A DNA stretch of 64,000 nucleotides, taken from assembly GCA_019244185.1 (NCBI GenBank), contig JAFATB010000012.1:118996-182995 (forward strand). The letters are read 5' to 3'. Under the pieces are notes generated by a model, which worked only from the letters and a program-made list of their open reading frames with translations, was not told the DNA's origin and did no database searches. Both the position numbers and the translations under genes were made by a program. Of this stretch, positions 18,236 to 25,271 are shown piece after piece (positions within the stretch are counted from its first letter, which is position 1; each line of letters starts with the position of its first letter). The stretch is from Acidobacteriota bacterium (GTDB lineage: Bacteria > Acidobacteriota > Thermoanaerobaculia > Gp7-AA8).

Positions 18236-18721
18236 GTGGCTGCAGCAGAAGTGAACTGTCCCGAATGTCAATCGCCGCGCGCGGATCCGAGCGTGGTTTG
18301 CCCGACGTGCGGCGCGCCGCCGGTGCGCAAAGGCGACAAGCGCACGACCGATGAAGAAGTGCGTTCGGCCGATCTCGAGCCGTACGTGACGCTGCGCTAC
18401 ATCGCGCGGCTCTTCAAGGTGCTGGCGGTGCTGATGGTGGTGATGCTCATCGGCGAGATCGTCGCCGGCGTGCGCGCGGATGCGGCCGAGGCGCTGCCGA
18501 CGCTCATCGGCGAGATCACGCAGATGCTCGTGCTGGCGGGACTCATGTGGGGCGGCGGCGATCTGACGCTGCTGTTCATCGACGCCGGTCACGATCTCCG
18601 CGTCGCGCGCATTCTCCTCGGGCGCATGAACTCCGAAATGCACCGCAAGAACAGCGAAGACAGCCGCGGCGCGGTGGGCGTTACGACGGTGCCGCCGCCG
18701 ACGCCACGATCGACCGTGTGA
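18236..18721 (+). CDS. Zinc-ribbon + two-TM hypothetical protein
   Basis: AGGAGG SD before GTG 18236; CPEC...CPTC followed by two hydrophobic helices. Confidence 0.75.
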   Translation: MAAAEVNCPECQSPRADPSVVCPTCGAPPVRKGDKRTTDEEVRSADLEPYVTLRYIARLFKVLAVLMVVMLIGEIVAGVRADAAEALPTLIGEITQMLVLAGLMWGGGDLTLLFIDAGHDLRVARILLGRMNSEMHRKNSEDSRGAVGVTTVPPPTPRSTV

Positions 18722-19517
18722 GCAGTTCGCGCAACTCGCGGAAGACGTTCTCGGGCGGCAGTCCCATCTCGCGATAGCCGGCCGCGCGCTTGAGAACGTT
18801 CTCCGCGGTCTTCTCGTCGAAGATCCGCGAGTCGACAGTGCGGTTGTTCAGCGCGCAGAACGCGATCAGCGATGCGAGCGAGACGCGGCGGTTGCCGCCG
18901 CGGAACGGCCGCGCCTGCAGCAGCGCGAAAACGAGCGCCGCCACTTTCTCGGGAAACGTCGGATACGCCTCGCGCCCGAGGGTCGTGACCTGCGGACGCT
19001 GGACGGCGCTGAGCAGGCCGAATTGCGACTCGACGACGCCGGGATGCGCGGCCGTGCCGCCGAACTCCGCGCTGACGGCGCGGTGGAGCTCCACCACGTC
19101 CTGCACGGTGAGGTAACGAACGCCGCCGTCAGTCGGTGAGGCGGCGGAAAGCGTTGTTGTACTTCTTGACGGCGTGCTTGAACGCGGCGCCGATGACGGG
19201 GTTGGAGAAGGAGCCGTTGTTGTCTGCGGGGACACGGCCTTTGCCGCGGCTTTCGCCGGAGGCGCTGCCGGCTTTTGCGGAGCCGCCGGTTTTTTCGCCG
19301 GAGCTGCTGCCGCCTTTTTGGCCGGAGCCGGCTTGCTGTTTTTCGGTGCTGCTTTGGTGGCTGCCGGTTTTTGCGGCGGCTTTGCTGCTTTTGCCGTCGG
19401 TTTTGCCGGCGGCTTTGACGACGCTTTCGCCGGCGCCTTCGCCGTTTTTGCCGGTGCTGCTTTTTTTCCCTGAGGCTTGGCTGCTTTTGCCGTCTTTGGC
19501 TTTTGCTTTGTCGCCAT
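18681..19517 (-). CDS. Doc/Fic-family protein with histone-H1-like (Ala/Lys/Pro) N-terminal extension and degenerate active site
   Basis: C-terminal YLTVQDVVELH...FGG...GLLSAVQRP...YPTFPEKVAALVFALLQARPFRGGNRR...FCALN matches the Doc-family layout; about 95 N-terminal residues are PAKK/AAK repeats. Confidence 0.85.
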   Translation of the reverse strand: MATKQKPKTAKAAKPQGKKAAPAKTAKAPAKASSKPPAKPTAKAAKPPQKPAATKAAPKNSKPAPAKKAAAAPAKKPAAPQKPAAPPAKAAAKAVSPQTTTAPSPTPSSAPRSSTPSRSTTTLSAASPTDGGVRYLTVQDVVELHRAVSAEFGGTAAHPGVVESQFGLLSAVQRPQVTTLGREAYPTFPEKVAALVFALLQARPFRGGNRRVSLASLIAFCALNNRTVDSRIFDEKTAENVLKRAAGYREMGLPPENVFRELRELLTRSIVASAAAPS

Positions 19518-19524
19518 GCGTCAT
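19129..19524 (-). CDS. Overlapping-frame putative antitoxin (low-complexity G/K/S region plus C-terminal helix)
   Basis: ATG 5 nt after the GAGGA SD. The last ~30 codons (NNGSFSNPVIGAAFKHAVKKYNNAFRRLTD) have strongly C/G-ending codons in this frame and resemble C-termini of Doc-associated antidotes; the stop lies just before the Doc domain. Confidence 0.65.
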   Translation of the reverse strand: MTHGDKAKAKDGKSSQASGKKSSTGKNGEGAGESVVKAAGKTDGKSSKAAAKTGSHQSSTEKQQAGSGQKGGSSSGEKTGGSAKAGSASGESRGKGRVPADNNGSFSNPVIGAAFKHAVKKYNNAFRRLTD

Positions 19525-19542
19525 CTCAGTCCTCGGGCGGAT

Positions 19543-19571
19543 AGGATAGCCCTGTTAAGTGACTGAGTCAA
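19543..19571 (-). promoter_or_regulatory. sigma70-like promoter with palindrome over the -35
   Basis: TTGACT (19571-19566), 17 nt, TATCCT (19548-19543); inverted repeat TGACTgAGTCA at 19560-19570. Confidence 0.7.
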
Positions 19572-19653
19572 CGTGGGTTAGGGGAGCGTCGCGGCTAACT
19601 CTCTGAAGGTAAAGTAGTTTACCGTCTCGAAAAAATGCACCGAACCTTGTGCA

Positions 19654-19962
19654 TCAGACGCCGTCCACGCCGTCGTTGAGCGCGGCGGACACGGCGGCGT
19701 CGCTCGTTTCCTCGATCCCGGGCAGCGCCTCGATGGCCAGAAAGTCCTTCCCCTTGGCGGTGATGGCGAAGTTTTCCTTCGCCGCGTCCGCTTCGAGAAA
19801 GCCCTTCTCGACCAGCGTCACGGCCGGCGTTTCGCCGCCGCCGATGGGATGCTTGATCCCTTTGATCGTGGCGAGCGGCAGCGTCTGCGCGTTGAGGCGA
19901 CGGTACTCCTGCAACACGCGGATCTCGGCGGTGGTCAACCCGAGCGGAAGGATGATGGCCAT
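19654..19962 (-). CDS. Small hypothetical protein, possible winged helix
   Basis: 102 aa; LTTAEIRVL...LVEKGFLE...FAITAKGKDFL wing-like motif; TATAAT 9 nt upstream of the ATG. Confidence 0.7.
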   Translation of the reverse strand: MAIILPLGLTTAEIRVLQEYRRLNAQTLPLATIKGIKHPIGGGETPAVTLVEKGFLEADAAKENFAITAKGKDFLAIEALPGIEETSDAAVSAALNDGVDGV

Positions 19963-19972
19963 GCGGGCGCGA

Positions 19973-20779
19973 TTATACGGTCTGGCACTTCGGACACCAG
20001 TACGTGCCGCGCGCGTTCGGCCCCTGCTTCGCGTAGCGGATCGGCGTGCCGCACTTGCGGCACGGCTTGCCGCCGCGGCCGAAGACGTATTGCGTCTGGC
20101 GCGGATCGAGGCTGAAGGTCGTGATGCGTCCGGCGCTGCGTTTGGTGATGTTGGCGAGCATGAGCTTGCGCATGGTGCGGAGAAGCAGCGCGAGCTGTTC
20201 GTCGGTCACGTCGCGCGTTTTCGCGAACGGATTCACGCGGCTCATGAAGAGCACTTCGTTCTTGAACTCGTTGCCGATGCCGGCCACGACGCGCTGGTTG
20301 AGCAGCACGTCCGCGATCTCTTCGTCGGGACGCGCGCGGATGCGGCGTAGCGCCTCGTCGAAGTCGAACGTCGCCGCGGCGAAGTCGGGGCCGATGCGCG
20401 CGAGGTCTTCCTGCCGCGCGAGCGACGCGTCGTCGTGGAACTCCGCGATCGGCACGTTGAACGCGACGGCGATCCAAGGATCCGTCTCGATGACGAGGCG
20501 CATGTCGCTGCGGCGCCGCCGCCACTTCTCGCCGCTTCGATAGAGATGCCACGAGCCGTGCATGCGCATGTGCGTGCGCAGATGCAGTCCGCCGGAGAAG
20601 TCGATGATGAGGTTCTTTCCTTCGGCGACGACGCGCTCGACGACGCGGCCGGCGAGCGGCGCGTCTTCGTCGACGCGCGCGAGCTGCGGCAGCACGCTCT
20701 CGAAGCGCGTGATCGTCTTGCCCGCGAGCGCGGCGTGCAGCGTGCGCGCCGCGCGGTGGATCGTGTCACCTTCCGGCAT
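19973..20779 (-). CDS. nei: Fpg/Nei-family DNA glycosylase
   Basis: N-terminal PEGD; GKNL, H.RMHGSW, LLNQRVVAGIGN and C-terminal CRKC...CPKCQ zinc finger. Confidence 0.92.
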   Translation of the reverse strand: MPEGDTIHRAARTLHAALAGKTITRFESVLPQLARVDEDAPLAGRVVERVVAEGKNLIIDFSGGLHLRTHMRMHGSWHLYRSGEKWRRRRSDMRLVIETDPWIAVAFNVPIAEFHDDASLARQEDLARIGPDFAAATFDFDEALRRIRARPDEEIADVLLNQRVVAGIGNEFKNEVLFMSRVNPFAKTRDVTDEQLALLLRTMRKLMLANITKRSAGRITTFSLDPRQTQYVFGRGGKPCRKCGTPIRYAKQGPNARGTYWCPKCQTV

Positions 20780-23700
20780 TGCGCAGTTGATATCCCATCG
20801 CCGTCGCGACGAAGCCTTCTTCGACGAGGAACGGCGCGAGCGGCGAGCGCGCGGCCGGCTCGTCGTTGATCTCGCCGAGGAGCAGCGCGCGGCGCGAGCC
20901 GTCGCGCACGAGCGAGGCGAGCGTCTGCGCGACCGCGCGCGCGACGTTGCCGCGCGACGGCTCGTCCTCGGGCAGGAAGAGGAAGAGCTGCTTCTCGCCG
21001 CGCGAGAGGTAGCCGGCCATCAGTCCGTTGACGAGGATGACGTGCGCGCCGACGCTGCGCGACAGCGTCCGTGCCGAAGCAACGGCGGATTCGGGCCACG
21101 GCACGATCGCGCCGTACGGATTCGCGGGATCGGTCGCGGCGAGGAACACGCGCTCGATCTCTTCCGGCTCGTCGCGCATGCCGCGCAACAGATCGATCGC
21201 GCCGCCGCTGGCGAACTGCGTCGCGCCGAGTCCGGCCACGAAGTAGCCGCGGCGAATGCGTCCCGCGTCTTCCATCGCTTTGAGGATCGGATAGACGGCC
21301 GAGAAGCCGCCGAAGATGTTCTCGAGCGCGGGCGCCTCGCGCGTGACGACGCCGTAGCGCGCCAGCAACTGGTGTGCGAGCGCGTTTGCGCGCTGCGTGT
21401 CGTTGCCGGCGGCGGACGGCACGAGCGACCAGCGTCCCTGCGTCGACGCCGGCGCGACGCGGCGCGAGCGGAACGCTCCGGCGCGCGCCGGTGCGCTGCG
21501 CGTCTTCGACGTGCGCGTGAACGCGCGCAGCGCGTGGAACGTGTCGTTCGTGACGGCGCCCTTCCAGACGAGATCCCACAGCGTGTCGATGAGCTCCGCG
21601 GGGAAGCCGCCGACTTCGGCCTGCATCTGCGCGAAGAACGACGCGCCGCGCGCGCGCAGGTAATCGACGAGCGGCGACTCGACCGGCTCGCGCGCGGGGA
21701 CGAGCAGCGGCAGATGATCGGTGAGGTAGAGCGCGATGCGGCCGTCGCGTTCGCCGAGCGGCTCGACGCCGACCCACACGATTTCGCCCGCGGCGCTGAG
21801 CGTGTCGAGATCGGACGGTTTGTAGTCGTCGACGCGCGACGCGAGGATCTCGCTCTCGAAGATCGACGCGGCCATCGGGAAGCCCTGCAGCGTTTCGACG
21901 ACTTCGAGCAGCGCGTCGAGCCCGCGGCGTTTGCGCGTCACGCCCTGCCAGTTCGTGAAGAGGCGCGCGAGCACGGACGGGTCGACCGGTTCCGCTTCCT
22001 TGCGCAACTTCGCCAGCGATCGCCGCCGGATCGTGCGCAGCACGTCGGCCTCGCACCACTCGCGCTGCGTGCCGCCGGGACGGAACTCCCCTTCGATCAG
22101 GCGTCCGCGCTCGACGAAGCGTTCGAGCGCGTGCGTGACGACGGCGATGCCGAGGGCGTAGCGCTGCGCGACGTCGTGCGGCGTGAACGGACCGTGCGTG
22201 CGCGCGTAGCGCAGCACGAGATCGCCGACCGGATCGGCGACCGGCTGCAGGTACCGCTCCGCGACGCCGTGCGGAATCGGCGTGCCGAGCGCGTCGCGAA
22301 AACGCGACGCGTCTTCGACGGCGATGATGCGCTTCGTGCGCGCGATCGTGACTTCGAGCACGCGGCGCTGCTTGAGCAGTTCGCGAATCGCGGCATCGGT
22401 CTCGATGATCGCGCGCGCCGCGAGTTCGTCGGGCGAGAGATCGCCGAGGCGCAGCAGCAGATCGTGCACGCCGTCGACGCTCTTCGCTTTGCGGTTCTCG
22501 TCGAGATGCTGCAGTTCGAGCTCCGTCTGCGCGAGCGCGTCGGGATCGAGCAGCTCGCGCAGCTCCGGCTCGCCGAGGAGCTCGCGCAGTTGCGACTGAT
22601 CGATCGCGAGCGCCTGCGCGCGGCGTTCGGCGAGCGGCGCGTCGCCGTCGTAGAGAAAATTCGCGACGTAGCGGAAGAGCACGGACGCCGCGAACGGCGA
22701 CGGCTTCTGCGTGTCGGCGGTGACGACGCGAATGGTCCGCGCACGGATGCGCCGCGTGAGCTCGACGAGCGCGGGAACGTCGAAGGCATCGCGCAGCGTC
22801 TCGCGGTACGCCTCGAGGATGATCGGGAACGAGCCGAAGCGTGACGCGACCTGCAGGAGGTCGTAGGCGCGCTTGCGCTGCTGCCAGAGCGGCGTTCGTC
22901 CCTGAATGCGCGTGCGCGGCAGGAGCAGCGCGCGCGCCGCGGCCTCGCGGAACTTCGCGGCGAACATCGAGCTCGCGCCGAGCTGGCGCAGCAGGAGCTG
23001 TTCGACCTCGTCGGGATCGGGGAGTACGAGCTCCGCGGCGGGCGGCGCGTCGGTCTCGGGGAAGCGCACGATGAAGCCGTCGTCGCTCCACATGGTCTCG
23101 ACGTCGATGGCCAGCTCGTTGCGCACTTTCGCGGTGACGGCCATCGCCCACGGCGCGTGAATCTTGCCGCCGAACGGCGAGAGCACGCAGACGCGCCAGT
23201 CGCCCAGCTCGTCGGTCACGCGCTCGATGACGATCGTGCGATCGTCGGGCACCGCGCCGGTCGCTTCCTGCTGATCGTCGAGGTACTGCAGGAAGTTCTC
23301 GGCGGCCATGCGGTCGAGATCGTGGCGCGTGACGAGACGCTCGATCGCGGCGGGCTTCTTCGTCGCGCGGATCTCGCGCACGAGGCGGCCGATCGCTTCG
23401 CCGAAAGGCACGGTGCGTTCGGCGGCATCGGCTTTCCAGAACGGCATCTTCCCCGGCTCGCCGGGCGCGGGCGTGACGACGACGCGATCGTGCGTGATCT
23501 CCTCGATGCGCCACGTCGACGCGCCGAGCATGAACGTGTCGCCCGGCGACGACTCGAAGACCATCTCTTCATCGAGCTCGCCGACGCGCGCGGATTGGTT
23601 CTTCTCCGCGCCGGCGAGGAAGACGCCGTACAAACCGCGATCGGGAATCGTGCCGCCGCTCGTGATGGCGACGCGCTTCGCGCCTTCGCGCGCGGTGATC

Positions 23701-25271
23701 GTGTTCGTGACGCGATCCCACGTCACGCGCGGGCGCAGCTCCGCGAATTCGTCGGACGGATAGAGGCCGGAGAGCATGTCCAGCACGCCGTCGAACGCGG
23801 TGCGCGACAGCTCCGCGTACGGCGCGCACGAGCGGATGGTGCGATAGAGATCGTCGACGTTCCAGGCGTCGACGGCGATCATGGCCACAAGCTGCTGCGC
23901 GAGGACGTCGAGCGGGTTGCGCGGATAGCGCGTCGGTTCGATCGCCCCCTCGTGCATCGCCTCGGCGACCGCCGCGCAGGCGATGAGATCGCCGCGGAAC
24001 TTCGGGAAGATGATGCCGCTCGACTCCGCGCCGACCTGATGGCTCGCGCGTCCGATGCGCTGCATGCCCGACGCGATCGATGGCGGCGCTTCGATCTGAA
24101 TCACGAGATCGATCGAGCCCATGTCGATCCCGAGCTCCAGAGAGGACGTGGCGACGAGCGCGGGCAGCCGTCCCGACTTCAGGTTGTCTTCGATCTCGGT
24201 GCGTTGCGCGCGCGCGATCGAGCCGTGGTGCGCCTGCACGAGCGTTTCGCCGGCGAGCTCGTTGAGCGCCGTGGCCAGACGTTCGGCGAGCCGCCGCGAG
24301 TTGACGAAGATCAGCGTCGAGGTGTGCGCGCGAATGAGCTCGAGGAGGCGCGGATGCATGGCCGGCCAGATCGACGGCGAGCGCGGTCCGAGCGACGCGG
24401 GGCCGCTCGCGATCTCCTGCGTGGCGGCGAGCTTGGCCATGTCTTCGACCGGCACTTCGACGCGCAGCGTGAGCTTCTTCTTCTCACCGGTGTCGACGAT
24501 CGTGACGGGACGGAACGTCGCGTGCGTGCGGTCGGCGAATTCGTCGTGGAGTTGTTCGCTCGCGTTCTCTTCCGCGCGCGGCGTCTGCGCTTCGGGCGTG
24601 GCGCCGCCGAGAAAGCGGGCCACTTCGTCGAGCGGCCGTTGCGTCGCGGAGAGGCCGATGCGTTGCGGCGGATGCAGCGTGCGCAGCGCGAGGCGTTCGA
24701 GCGAGAGAGCCATGTGCGCGCCGCGCTTGGTCGGCACGAGCGCGTGGATTTCGTCGATGATGATCGTCTCGACGCCGCGCAGTTGTTCGCGCGCGTTCGA
24801 CGTCAGCATGAGATACAGCGACTCCGGCGTGGTGATGAGGATGTCGGCCGGATCGCGCGCGAAGCGTGCGCGCTCGGACTGCGGCGTGTCGCCGGTGCGG
24901 ATGGCGATCTCCGGAACCAGGTAATCGTCGCCTCGCGCCTGCGCGACGTTCGCGATGCCGGCCAATGGCGCGCGCAGGTTCCGCTCGACGTCGACGGCGA
25001 GCGCCTTGAGCGGCGAAACGTACAGAACGCGGCAGCGCTGTTCCTTCGGCGGACGCGGCGCGAACATGAGGCGGTCGAGCGCCCAGAGGAACGCCGTCAG
25101 CGTTTTCCCGCTGCCGGTCGGCGCGAAGATGAGCGTCCAGTCGCCGCGCGCGATGGCGGGCCATCCGAGCTGCTGCGCGCGCGTCGGTGCGGCGAACGAC
25201 GACGCGAACCATTCACGCACGGCGGCGTGAAATGGCGCGAGCGTGGCATCAACCTTCAATGGGCGAGGCAT
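20766..25271 (-). CDS. lhr: Lhr-family large ATP-dependent helicase
   Basis: APTGSGKT, DEIH, LSAT, HHGS, TSSLELGID, QRIGR; extended CTD with LLARYGVVT, RRGYFV and ATDPANPYG. Confidence 0.95.
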   Translation of the reverse strand: MPRPLKVDATLAPFHAAVREWFASSFAAPTRAQQLGWPAIARGDWTLIFAPTGSGKTLTAFLWALDRLMFAPRPPKEQRCRVLYVSPLKALAVDVERNLRAPLAGIANVAQARGDDYLVPEIAIRTGDTPQSERARFARDPADILITTPESLYLMLTSNAREQLRGVETIIIDEIHALVPTKRGAHMALSLERLALRTLHPPQRIGLSATQRPLDEVARFLGGATPEAQTPRAEENASEQLHDEFADRTHATFRPVTIVDTGEKKKLTLRVEVPVEDMAKLAATQEIASGPASLGPRSPSIWPAMHPRLLELIRAHTSTLIFVNSRRLAERLATALNELAGETLVQAHHGSIARAQRTEIEDNLKSGRLPALVATSSLELGIDMGSIDLVIQIEAPPSIASGMQRIGRASHQVGAESSGIIFPKFRGDLIACAAVAEAMHEGAIEPTRYPRNPLDVLAQQLVAMIAVDAWNVDDLYRTIRSCAPYAELSRTAFDGVLDMLSGLYPSDEFAELRPRVTWDRVTNTITAREGAKRVAITSGGTIPDRGLYGVFLAGAEKNQSARVGELDEEMVFESSPGDTFMLGASTWRIEEITHDRVVVTPAPGEPGKMPFWKADAAERTVPFGEAIGRLVREIRATKKPAAIERLVTRHDLDRMAAENFLQYLDDQQEATGAVPDDRTIVIERVTDELGDWRVCVLSPFGGKIHAPWAMAVTAKVRNELAIDVETMWSDDGFIVRFPETDAPPAAELVLPDPDEVEQLLLRQLGASSMFAAKFREAAARALLLPRTRIQGRTPLWQQRKRAYDLLQVASRFGSFPIILEAYRETLRDAFDVPALVELTRRIRARTIRVVTADTQKPSPFAASVLFRYVANFLYDGDAPLAERRAQALAIDQSQLRELLGEPELRELLDPDALAQTELELQHLDENRKAKSVDGVHDLLLRLGDLSPDELAARAIIETDAAIRELLKQRRVLEVTIARTKRIIAVEDASRFRDALGTPIPHGVAERYLQPVADPVGDLVLRYARTHGPFTPHDVAQRYALGIAVVTHALERFVERGRLIEGEFRPGGTQREWCEADVLRTIRRRSLAKLRKEAEPVDPSVLARLFTNWQGVTRKRRGLDALLEVVETLQGFPMAASIFESEILASRVDDYKPSDLDTLSAAGEIVWVGVEPLGERDGRIALYLTDHLPLLVPAREPVESPLVDYLRARGASFFAQMQAEVGGFPAELIDTLWDLVWKGAVTNDTFHALRAFTRTSKTRSAPARAGAFRSRRVAPASTQGRWSLVPSAAGNDTQRANALAHQLLARYGVVTREAPALENIFGGFSAVYPILKAMEDAGRIRRGYFVAGLGATQFASGGAIDLLRGMRDEPEEIERVFLAATDPANPYGAIVPWPESAVASARTLSRSVGAHVILVNGLMAGYLSRGEKQLFLFLPEDEPSRGNVARAVAQTLASLVRDGSRRALLLGEINDEPAARSPLAPFLVEEGFVATAMGYQLRNAGR

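Follow-up and report, generated by a model that had tools for sequence, protein, structure and literature searches.

A probable same-strand dual-coding gene of antitoxin-doc origin, with tandem out-of-frame starts, in an order of Acidobacteriota

Two kinds of described system come closest to the locus reported here. In Thermus, the genes of the RNase P protein and of ribosomal protein L34 (rnpA/rpmH; Feltens et al., 2003) begin at two out-of-frame AUGs behind one Shine-Dalgarno (SD) sequence, and both proteins were shown experimentally, according to the part of PMC9841429 that concerns them. In the P1 Phd-Doc module, residues 52-73 of Phd suffice to bind and neutralise Doc, as stated in an excerpt of PMC9207808. 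We analysed a window of 64,000 nucleotides (nt) from an Acidobacteriota bacterium (contig JAFATB010000012.1 of assembly GCA_019244185.1, positions 118,996 to 182,995), to which all coordinates below refer. On its minus strand two overlapping open reading frames (ORFs), ORF A (19524-19129, 131 amino acids) and ORF B (19517-18681, 278 amino acids), join the Thermus-type start arrangement to the partner logic of Phd-Doc, a combination that we regard as real and unusual. Our preferred reading, to which we assign a probability of about 0.72, is that of a conserved same-strand dual-coding gene that arose from an antitoxin-doc operon, uses tandem out-of-frame starts and encodes a domesticated pair of proteins.

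The locus resembles Thermus rnpA/rpmH, as far as the latter is described in that excerpted source, in its out-of-frame ATGs a few nucleotides apart, its single SD and its long overlap on the same strand; in one related locus (L031) the spacing of 4 nt, ATGaATG, is that of Thermus. It differs in that neither ORF is nested, as the shorter one starts first and the longer one continues into a folded domain. The overlap here is made of two low-complexity cationic tails, and the products are predicted partners known from sequence alone.

Like P1 Phd-Doc, the locus has a Doc-like fold and an upstream product whose kinked two-helix C-terminal segment is predicted to bind Doc, and as in the canonical modules of the phylum the stop of the antitoxin lies at the start of Doc. 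Unlike in Phd-Doc, the Doc is startless here and is fused to a tail that covers the full length of the antitoxin gene in another frame. The antitoxin-like product has no Phd/RHH/AbrB DNA-binding domain, the loci as a group have not kept the catalytic His, and the gene belongs to the syntenic core and not to the accessory genes. The two separate cistrons with starts of their own, a feature of type II modules, were not found.

Same-strand overlapping second frames that are translated and functional are also known from hok/mok of plasmid R1 and from comS in srfA of Bacillus subtilis. The mok frame provides translational coupling in a type I system, and the small peptide ComS is translated from an internal start within a large synthetase gene; neither case is known to involve tandem starts that share an SD, or two products that bind each other. 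Bacterial proteins with histone H1-like Ala/Lys/Pro-rich tails form a further class. Unlike in these, the tail here precedes a Doc-like domain, and its DNA would also be read in a second frame; ordinary codons are used in another A/K/P-rich ORF of the genome. Among publications judged by their titles and the beginnings of their abstracts, no account of such a locus was found. Long same-strand dual coding conserved over a whole bacterial order is very rare. If our reading is true, the locus would be the second natural case and a richer one, with about 50 diverged versions in which the co-evolution of two proteins on one DNA could be followed.

Arrangement of the locus and its conservation

ORF A runs from ATG-A (19524-19522) to a TGA at 19131-19129, and ORF B from ATG-B (19517-19515) to a stop at 18683-18681. 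Frame B equals frame A +1, and the two ORFs overlap by 389 nt. The tandem starts read ATGacgcATG (19524-19515), ATG-B following 7 nt after ATG-A, and the last stop in frame B is overlapped by ATG-A (ATGA). A single GAGGA (19534-19530) serves as SD for both ATGs, at a distance of 5 nt from ATG-A and 12 nt from ATG-B (GAGGA-n5-ATG-n4-ATG). The original prediction, made from the letters of the window, had described one promoter, one SD, ATGs at 19524 and 19517 and about 390 nt of shared open frames, and was confirmed in all these points.

The body of ORF A consists of a polycationic, disordered region rich in G, S, K and A, followed by a conserved C-terminal motif. Its last 26 amino acids (19209-19132) form a predicted antitoxin-like, Doc-binding segment of two predicted helices with a kink, of the type F-x-N-P...A-F-K-x-A-V-K-K-Y-x-N-A-F-R-R-L-T-D. 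ORF B begins with an A/K/P-rich, histone H1-like tail (19517-19227), encoded by the same bases as the G/S/K-rich tail of frame A. It continues with an S/T/P linker (19226-19134), which is the shadow of the frame-A helix, and ends with a Doc-like domain of the Fic fold (19133-18684, 150 amino acids). The G+C content at third codon positions (GC3) was 0.8-1.0 in frame A at 19224-19134, and low in frame B at the same place; in frame B it was 0.8-1.0 from 19127 downwards. Within the shared tail it was typical of the genome in no frame. The profile therefore indicates A as the coding frame over 19224-19134 and B from 19127 downwards.

The Doc-like domain is present in a single copy in the genome of the window and was found in 98 of 101 genomes of the family and in 116 of 121 genomes of the order, tallies that include four unpublished genomes. 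In a sample of the phylum, strong matches were confined to the order; outside it, 21 of 301 genomes gave weak matches, to ordinary Doc toxins, at E <= 1e-8. The architecture itself was compared in 50 loci. In 48 of these both ATGs, both open frames and the C-terminal motif of frame A were kept, the point that the original prediction had named as a check; frame A stopped at the very start of the Doc domain and frame B ran into the domain. For comparison, no more than 14 of the 48 have the third sense frame open. The two ATGs were 7 nt apart in 46 of the 48 complete loci, 4 nt apart in L031 (genome G203, of another family) and 58 nt apart in L045 (G006). L045 has a GTG in place of the usual ATG-B, with a stop in frame B behind it, and the ATG that opens this frame lies 58 nt downstream of ATG-A. 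The two non-conforming loci are one truncated by the end of its contig and one with a phase change (L033), which is taken up below. The overlap measured 233-497 nt among the loci, and the tails varied greatly in length and sequence. By tblastn the frame-A helix was found in 30 of 30 and in 17 of 20 loci, always in the frame that does not encode Doc.

An assembly or sequencing indel was considered as a source of the overlap and rejected, since other genomes show the same architecture at 48 of 50 loci. The check for an indel error also came out clean in other respects: contigs of two public runs, possibly the source of the stretch, were identical to it, and a close strain showed 20 substitutions and a single 6-nt insertion, none of which broke a frame. 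The stretch 18600-19700 was present whole in runs labelled rhizosphere, rock and root metagenome (a possible source) and nearly identical in a soil metagenome run. Contigs of the only RNA run covered 6 of 30 bins, none of them within the overlap.

Database entries for the gene carry the names 'Fic family protein', 'prophage maintenance system killer protein' or 'hypothetical protein' and come from Thermoanaerobaculia or from Acidobacteriota metagenome bins. Annotation pipelines divide the gene inconsistently: the Fic proteins entered for it range from 157 to 262 amino acids, and the frame-A product has an entry in some cases only, under the name of a hypothetical protein. In one entry (P0324, 277 amino acids) the frame-A product continues beyond the point where it normally stops and covers the Doc domain in the shadow frame, and another (P0334) consists of tandem repeats of units like the end of the frame-A motif.

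The two products, their origin and toxicity

The Doc-like domain of protein B was recognised by the Pfam Fic/DOC model PF02661 at amino acids 135-220 of ORF B (E about 1.9e-10 to 7.4e-10), and its score of 41.9 bits against a cutoff of 24 places it in the Fic/Doc family. The cutoff of the NCBIfam model TIGR01550 (DOC_P1) was missed (22.6 bits versus 38.65, E 9e-05). A phmmer search of the domain against the PDB at E <= 0.01 returned nothing, and a profile of the domain matched PDB entries weakly (9vzc_A, E 0.02; P1 Doc 3k33_A, E 0.26). The structural model of the domain was of moderate quality, with a predicted local distance difference test (pLDDT) value of 72.1. Its best Foldseek matches were P1 Doc complexed with Phd (3dd7_A, E 3.8e-3, template modelling score 0.60/0.71, probability 1.00). 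Over 29 genomes the domain was 82% identical on average.

A degenerate Fic motif, R-P-F-R-G-G-N-R-R, lies at 18911-18885, its first residue aligned to the catalytic His66 of P1 Doc; in the HMMER alignment RPFRGGNRR of the window stands opposite GHIFNDANKR of 3k33_A. Among the 50 loci the position of the catalytic His is occupied by R in 22, S in 10, L in 6, M in 4, A in 2, H in 2 and K, Q, T and C in one each. The acidic residue of the motif is mostly replaced by Gly, and F, N and the final R are retained. The catalytic motif H-x-F-x-(D/E/N)-(G/A)-N-(G/K)-R with its His was not found. The tail of frame B contains 25% K, 25% A and 22% P over the 48 loci, and its median net charge is +24.

Protein A gave no Pfam or NCBIfam match at E <= 1 apart from one at chance level (0.8), and neither a Phd/YefM nor a ribbon-helix-helix (RHH) nor an AbrB/MazE DNA-binding domain was found in it with these two collections; its N-terminal part is of low complexity (G/S/K/A). 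When the C-terminal piece of protein A was modelled together with the Doc-like domain, the interface score ipSAE was 0.87 in three runs, a mark that was reached by 58 of 80 solved complexes and by 2 of 110 mismatched pairs, as opposed to 0.05 for the best of three controls. The runs agreed in at least 92% of their contacts, and the pLDDT of the partner was at least 73. Residues 13 and 15-40 of the 40-residue frame-A piece formed the predicted interface, and the piece was placed against the first Doc helix, the loop of the Fic motif and the helices that follow. The model supports binding of the frame-A helix to the Doc domain at the region of the Fic motif, which is roughly where the C-terminal part of Phd binds P1 Doc, a comparison made without superposition. 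A profile of the frame-A end gave only chance-level rows against the PDB (best E 0.55). Among these were faint resemblances to the last residues of ribosomal protein S1 from E. coli and to a stretch of PrsA (E 0.55-2.6), which are probably due to chance.

Ordinary Doc modules were studied in the same phylum (L051-L056), including three genomes of the same family (L054-L056). Their antitoxins measure 64-83 amino acids, have a weak RHH or MazE/AbrB-like N-terminus and end in ...LYRRLA or ...AFRRLAE, and their stop adjoins or overlaps the start of Doc. The Docs themselves, of 127-131 amino acids, begin with (M/V)RYL and possess an intact HPF-x-DGNKR motif. The end of frame A, ...AFRRLTD followed by a stop and by ...RYLT in the next frame, matches these modules in position and pattern. 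Some genomes of the family hold an ordinary antitoxin-Doc pair with intact His motif alongside the dual-coding gene.

Three points weigh against this kinship and against the predicted docking. The alignment by hhalign of the frame-A end with the ends of ordinary antitoxins was weak (E 0.037, probability 1.4%), and BLASTP of ORF A versus one canonical antitoxin gave no alignment. Because of these two results the homology of the antitoxin ends is a lead and not a result. The complex score, for which alignments of our own making were used, may stem in part from the model's memory of Phd-Doc structures. Of the antitoxin-like helix that had been proposed from the window, the conservation, the predicted binding to Doc and the likeness to ordinary antitoxins in position and motif thus stood, while the statistical evidence for kinship turned out weak.

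If the locus did descend from such a module, its simplest history would have comprised the loss of the Doc start, an extension of the Doc frame upstream across the whole antitoxin gene to a new ATG beside the antitoxin's own, the replacement of the antitoxin's DNA-binding domain by low-complexity sequence readable in two frames, and the decay of the catalytic His. The locus appears to record how a selfish toxin-antitoxin module became a fixed gene of its host.

In the mechanism that we propose, one messenger RNA with a short leader and a single SD would offer two competing starts. Initiation at ATG-A would give a protein of about 80-170 amino acids, in which a Lys-rich disordered region is followed by two C-terminal helices that together span about 26 amino acids; initiation at ATG-B would give the A/K/P-rich histone-like tail, the linker and the Doc-like domain deprived of its own start. 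Because ATG-A lies at the better distance from the SD, protein A would be made in excess, and the ratio of the subunits would be set by competition between the starts. The helix of A would clamp the Doc-like domain, and both proteins would carry polycationic tails, which suggest binding to nucleic acids. Given the loss of the catalytic His and the vertical inheritance of the gene as part of the core, the pair is most likely a domesticated, non-toxic two-subunit complex associated with nucleic acids. Taken by itself, the statement that the pair no longer acts as a toxin system has in our estimate a little better than an even chance. The most specific form of this idea, in which the operon collapsed into one dual-coding gene, with both partners written into the same 230-500 nt and the overprinted part shaped to yield a polycationic tail in either reading, and in which the catalytically dead Doc and its clamp helix make up a core nucleic-acid-associated factor (of chromatin or ribosome) of this order, at a ratio hard-wired by competition between the starts, remains tentative, and we place it slightly below even odds.

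The original prediction had seen in the locus a working toxin-antitoxin pair. Dual coding could indeed be real and the pair still be active, acting as a poison of a non-canonical kind with A as its labile antidote; the Doc fold, the antitoxin-like helix predicted to lie over the region of the Fic motif, the better-placed start of A, which would give an excess of antidote, and the retained F, N and R of the motif are all consistent with this. However, His occupies the catalytic position in only 2 of the 50 loci, and the acidic residue is mostly Gly. The gene is single-copy, near-universal and syntenic, unlike the patchy, mobile canonical modules, and protein A has no DNA-binding domain with which it could autoregulate. 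On these grounds the claim of a working pair was not upheld, and we consider an active toxin-antitoxin system unlikely.

Probable translation of both frames

Frame A is conserved at the protein level over its last 26-30 codons. Their variation falls mostly on the third position of frame A (A1 0.18, A2 0.18, A3 0.30), and third-position changes that are silent in frame A yield P, Q or L in frame B just before the Doc domain. A profile of 40 columns built from the end of frame A matched 193 proteins at E <= 0.001, of which 151 at E <= 1e-10. Nearly all of the 150 matches listed, mostly ORFs of 80-150 amino acids, have the motif at their extreme C-terminus; the 42 matches between E 1e-10 and 1e-3 lie outside these 150-odd. 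In none of the 29 loci examined for it did frame A contain another in-frame ATG, GTG or TTG, and ATG-A is therefore the only ordinary route to the helix peptide.

The codons of frame B in the tail also seem to be chosen in a way that serves frame A. Only 5 of 361 frame-B codons ending in T were followed by AA, AG or GA, and these five we take as frame A's own stop, in loci where that stop precedes the Doc start. If neighbouring codons were independent, about 93 premature stops would be expected in frame A, and about 31 after scaling for codon-pair bias (0.066 vs 0.197, calculated by hand and not by script). Of 1015 frame-B codons standing directly before a Lys codon, 80% have A as their last base, compared with 12% before CCN and 43% before GCN; an A in this place gives Lys rather than Glu in frame A. 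In ORFs of the genome the corresponding value was 3.2%, and in two other A/K/P-rich ORFs it was 5 of 42 and 0 of 18. A control ORF outside the window (contig C9 of G000, plus strand, 367 amino acids) has an A/K/P-rich N-terminal region of 185 codons with ordinary codon usage, in which 17% of third bases are A. The median net charge of the frame-A tail is +16, where -8.3 would be expected if the synonymous codons of frame B were free, and in 48 of 48 loci the charge was above that of all 200 resamples. In the close strain, third-position changes numbered 2 of about 130 in each frame of the overlap versus 10 of 149 in the Doc domain, which is a small sample.

A different route to the helix would be a -1 slip of ribosomes on the A-rich heptamers of the tail, with ATG-B as the only start used and a dnaX-like product made of the A/K/P tail and the helix. 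Frame A does equal frame B -1, and heptamers of the type X_XXY_YYZ, mostly A_AAA_AAG or A_AAA_AAA, lie in the phase of frame B in 41 of 48 loci; that frame A is open costs little in sequence of such composition. Against slippage, 7 of the 48 loci have no canonical heptamer, and those that exist stand at no conserved position. ATG-A with a well-spaced SD is found in all 48 complete loci and in L033, and frame A is open from ATG-A onward, with a tail that is cationic over its full length. We therefore regard slippage as quite improbable, and initiation at both ATGs as the better account of the helix.

For frame B, translation through the tail is indicated by the state of the Doc domain, which has no conserved start of its own. 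In the window, frame B contains no ATG, GTG or TTG between GTG 19235-19233, which is V95 of B and lies 39 codons ahead of the R of RYLT, and GTG 19106. Over the 50 loci the codon that precedes RYL is ATC in 13, GTT in 11, GTC in 11, ACG in 5, ACC in 4, GTG in 3 and another in 3, and 12 of the 50 lack any ATG, GTG or TTG from 40 codons before this codon to 12 after it. The earlier observation that the domain of the window lacks a private start thus extends to its relatives.

The codons of frame A in turn appear to be constrained by frame B. In all 46 loci with a spacing of 7 nt the third codon of frame A is CAT or GAT, which creates ATG-B, and the preference of the genome is the opposite (CAC 74%, GAC 77%). 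A change of CAT to CAC at this codon is silent in A and destroys ATG-B; since either start can be abolished without altering the protein of the other frame, the locus offers a clean genetic test bed. Codons of the form xTG make up 1 of 552 frame-A codons with T in second place, against 30% in ORFs of the genome; such codons would be read as a stop, Cys or Trp in frame B. Lys is encoded in the frame-A tail by AAA in 827 cases and by AAG in 87, and in frame A's own C-terminus by 33 AAA and 119 AAG; GAA and CAA are likewise preferred in the tail. This choice of AAA, GAA and CAA yields Lys instead of Arg or Ser in frame B. Given the frame-A protein and the codon usage of the genome, resampling put the probability that frame B is open at 0.08-0.58 per locus. 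Substitution rates in the tail were 0.30, 0.25 and 0.20 at the first, second and third positions of frame A, so that the third position of frame B is the most variable and its second the least. These counts were made on 24 disjoint species pairs, using only columns of the same phase with at least 60% local identity; the sequence is of low complexity, and the alignments are imperfect, as 30 of 109 MAFFT gaps were not multiples of 3.

This evidence also bears on a scheme in which only ATG-A is used, the tail of frame B is untranslated and ribosomes reaching the frame-A stop shift by +1 or hop, which would give an A-Doc fusion. Such a scheme would fit a Doc domain without a start, and it would fit the junction CTC-ACN-GAC-TGA-CGG, which is highly conserved and in which the stop context GAC-TGA-C is followed by GAC again 4 nt downstream. 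It does not explain why ATG-B persists in 46 of 46 loci although codon preference opposes it, and is moved and not lost in L045, why frame B is open in all 48 complete loci despite the low expectation for each, why xTG is purged from frame A and AAA, GAA and CAA are preferred in the tail only, or why B3 is the most variable and A3 the least variable position there. By eye, neither an SD-like stimulator nor a slippery P-site codon was seen at the stop of the window, and among the loci this stop lies at four different offsets from the Doc start. A hop at the stop is therefore very improbable, and we retain translation of frame B from ATG-B.

Equally little weight falls to the notion that frame B is the sole gene and ORF A an untranslated shadow held open by composition, as other frames are often open in such GC-rich sequence poor in hydrophobic residues (of 48 loci, 14 have the third sense frame open and 34 have one antisense frame open) and gene callers often annotate the Fic protein alone, but at 19224-19134 both GC3 and conservation follow frame A while frame B varies non-synonymously, the 193 profile matches (E <= 0.001) carry the motif at the C-terminus in nearly all cases listed, and both the predicted binding and the codon choice that keeps frame A cationic would be left unexplained.

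Several observations nevertheless count against dual coding and were weighed with the rest. Given the frame-B protein and the codon usage of the genome, frame A would be open with a probability of 0.43-0.76 per locus, and frame -1 of two other A/K/P-rich ORFs of the genome is open as well; openness of frame A by itself is weak evidence, as it is cheap in such composition. The substitution pattern of the tail is that of coding in frame B only, with no added constraint from frame A, and of the seven substitutions that separate the close strain within the overlap, two are silent in A only, two are silent in B only and three change both products. The bias towards A before Lys could in principle be a preference for runs of A at the nucleotide level and not selection on frame A. 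The related loci share kinship, and because their probabilities are not independent, products of the per-locus values overstate the case. L033 (G396, of another family of the order) breaks the dual-frame scheme: its ATGs are 7 nt apart, and a single-base phase change in mid-tail, by runs of A7 about 330 nt before Doc, brings ATG-A into the Doc frame and deprives the helix of its start. This change is either an assembly error or a natural variant.

Taken together, the odd synonymous codons of each frame are explained by the other frame. The comparison of loci shows selection on both frames and an architecture conserved throughout the order, and translation of both frames from the two ATGs seems probable from these sequence data. 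The remarks on codon usage in the original prediction held in the window and became stronger across its relatives.

Transcription and flanking genes

A promoter-like sigma-70 site, TTGACT-17-TATCCT, lies at 19571-19543 on the minus strand, with the -35 element at 19571-19566 and the -10 element at 19548-19543. It was the only one found, where 0.1 would be expected in shuffled sequence, and its position implies a leader of only about 12-15 nt. Judged by eye and not tallied by script, most of 45 start regions share a -35 element TTGAC(T), a spacer with CA-n5-CTTAAC and a TACGAT-like -10 element. The conservation extends past the hexamers, in the order TTGACTCA, 5 nt, (A/T)CTTAAC, 5-6 nt and the TACGAT-like -10 element; in a few loci, for example L007, L018 and L030, the promoter regions diverge. 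A GAGG or GGGG element stands at matching distance from the starts in the loci inspected. A conserved GA(G/A) just 5' of ATG-A lies 8-10 nt 5' of ATG-B and may aid initiation at ATG-B. An Rfam scan of 18500-19800 gave no match at E <= 1.

The -35 element of the window sits within an inverted repeat, TGACT-c-AGTCA (19570-19560), which could be an operator. As protein A has no DNA-binding domain, the regulator in that case would be another protein. A hairpin, ATGCAC-loop8-GTGCAT followed by a run of T (19630-19654, minus strand), was noticed by eye directly after the stop of the upstream ORF and is absent from the list of the terminator scan; it suggests that the dual-coding locus is a transcription unit of its own.

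The ORF directly upstream (19654-19962, minus strand, 102 amino acids) showed only faint matches to winged-helix or Sso10a-like chromatin proteins (E 0.18 and 0.046). Farther upstream on the same strand follow an Fpg/Nei-like gene (19973-20779) and a long helicase-like ORF (20766-25271). Across the loci, the 102-residue gene was kept upstream in 28 of 30, the Fpg/Nei-like gene in 21 of 30 and a zinc-ribbon gene downstream in 25 of 30, with the misses due in part to short flanks.

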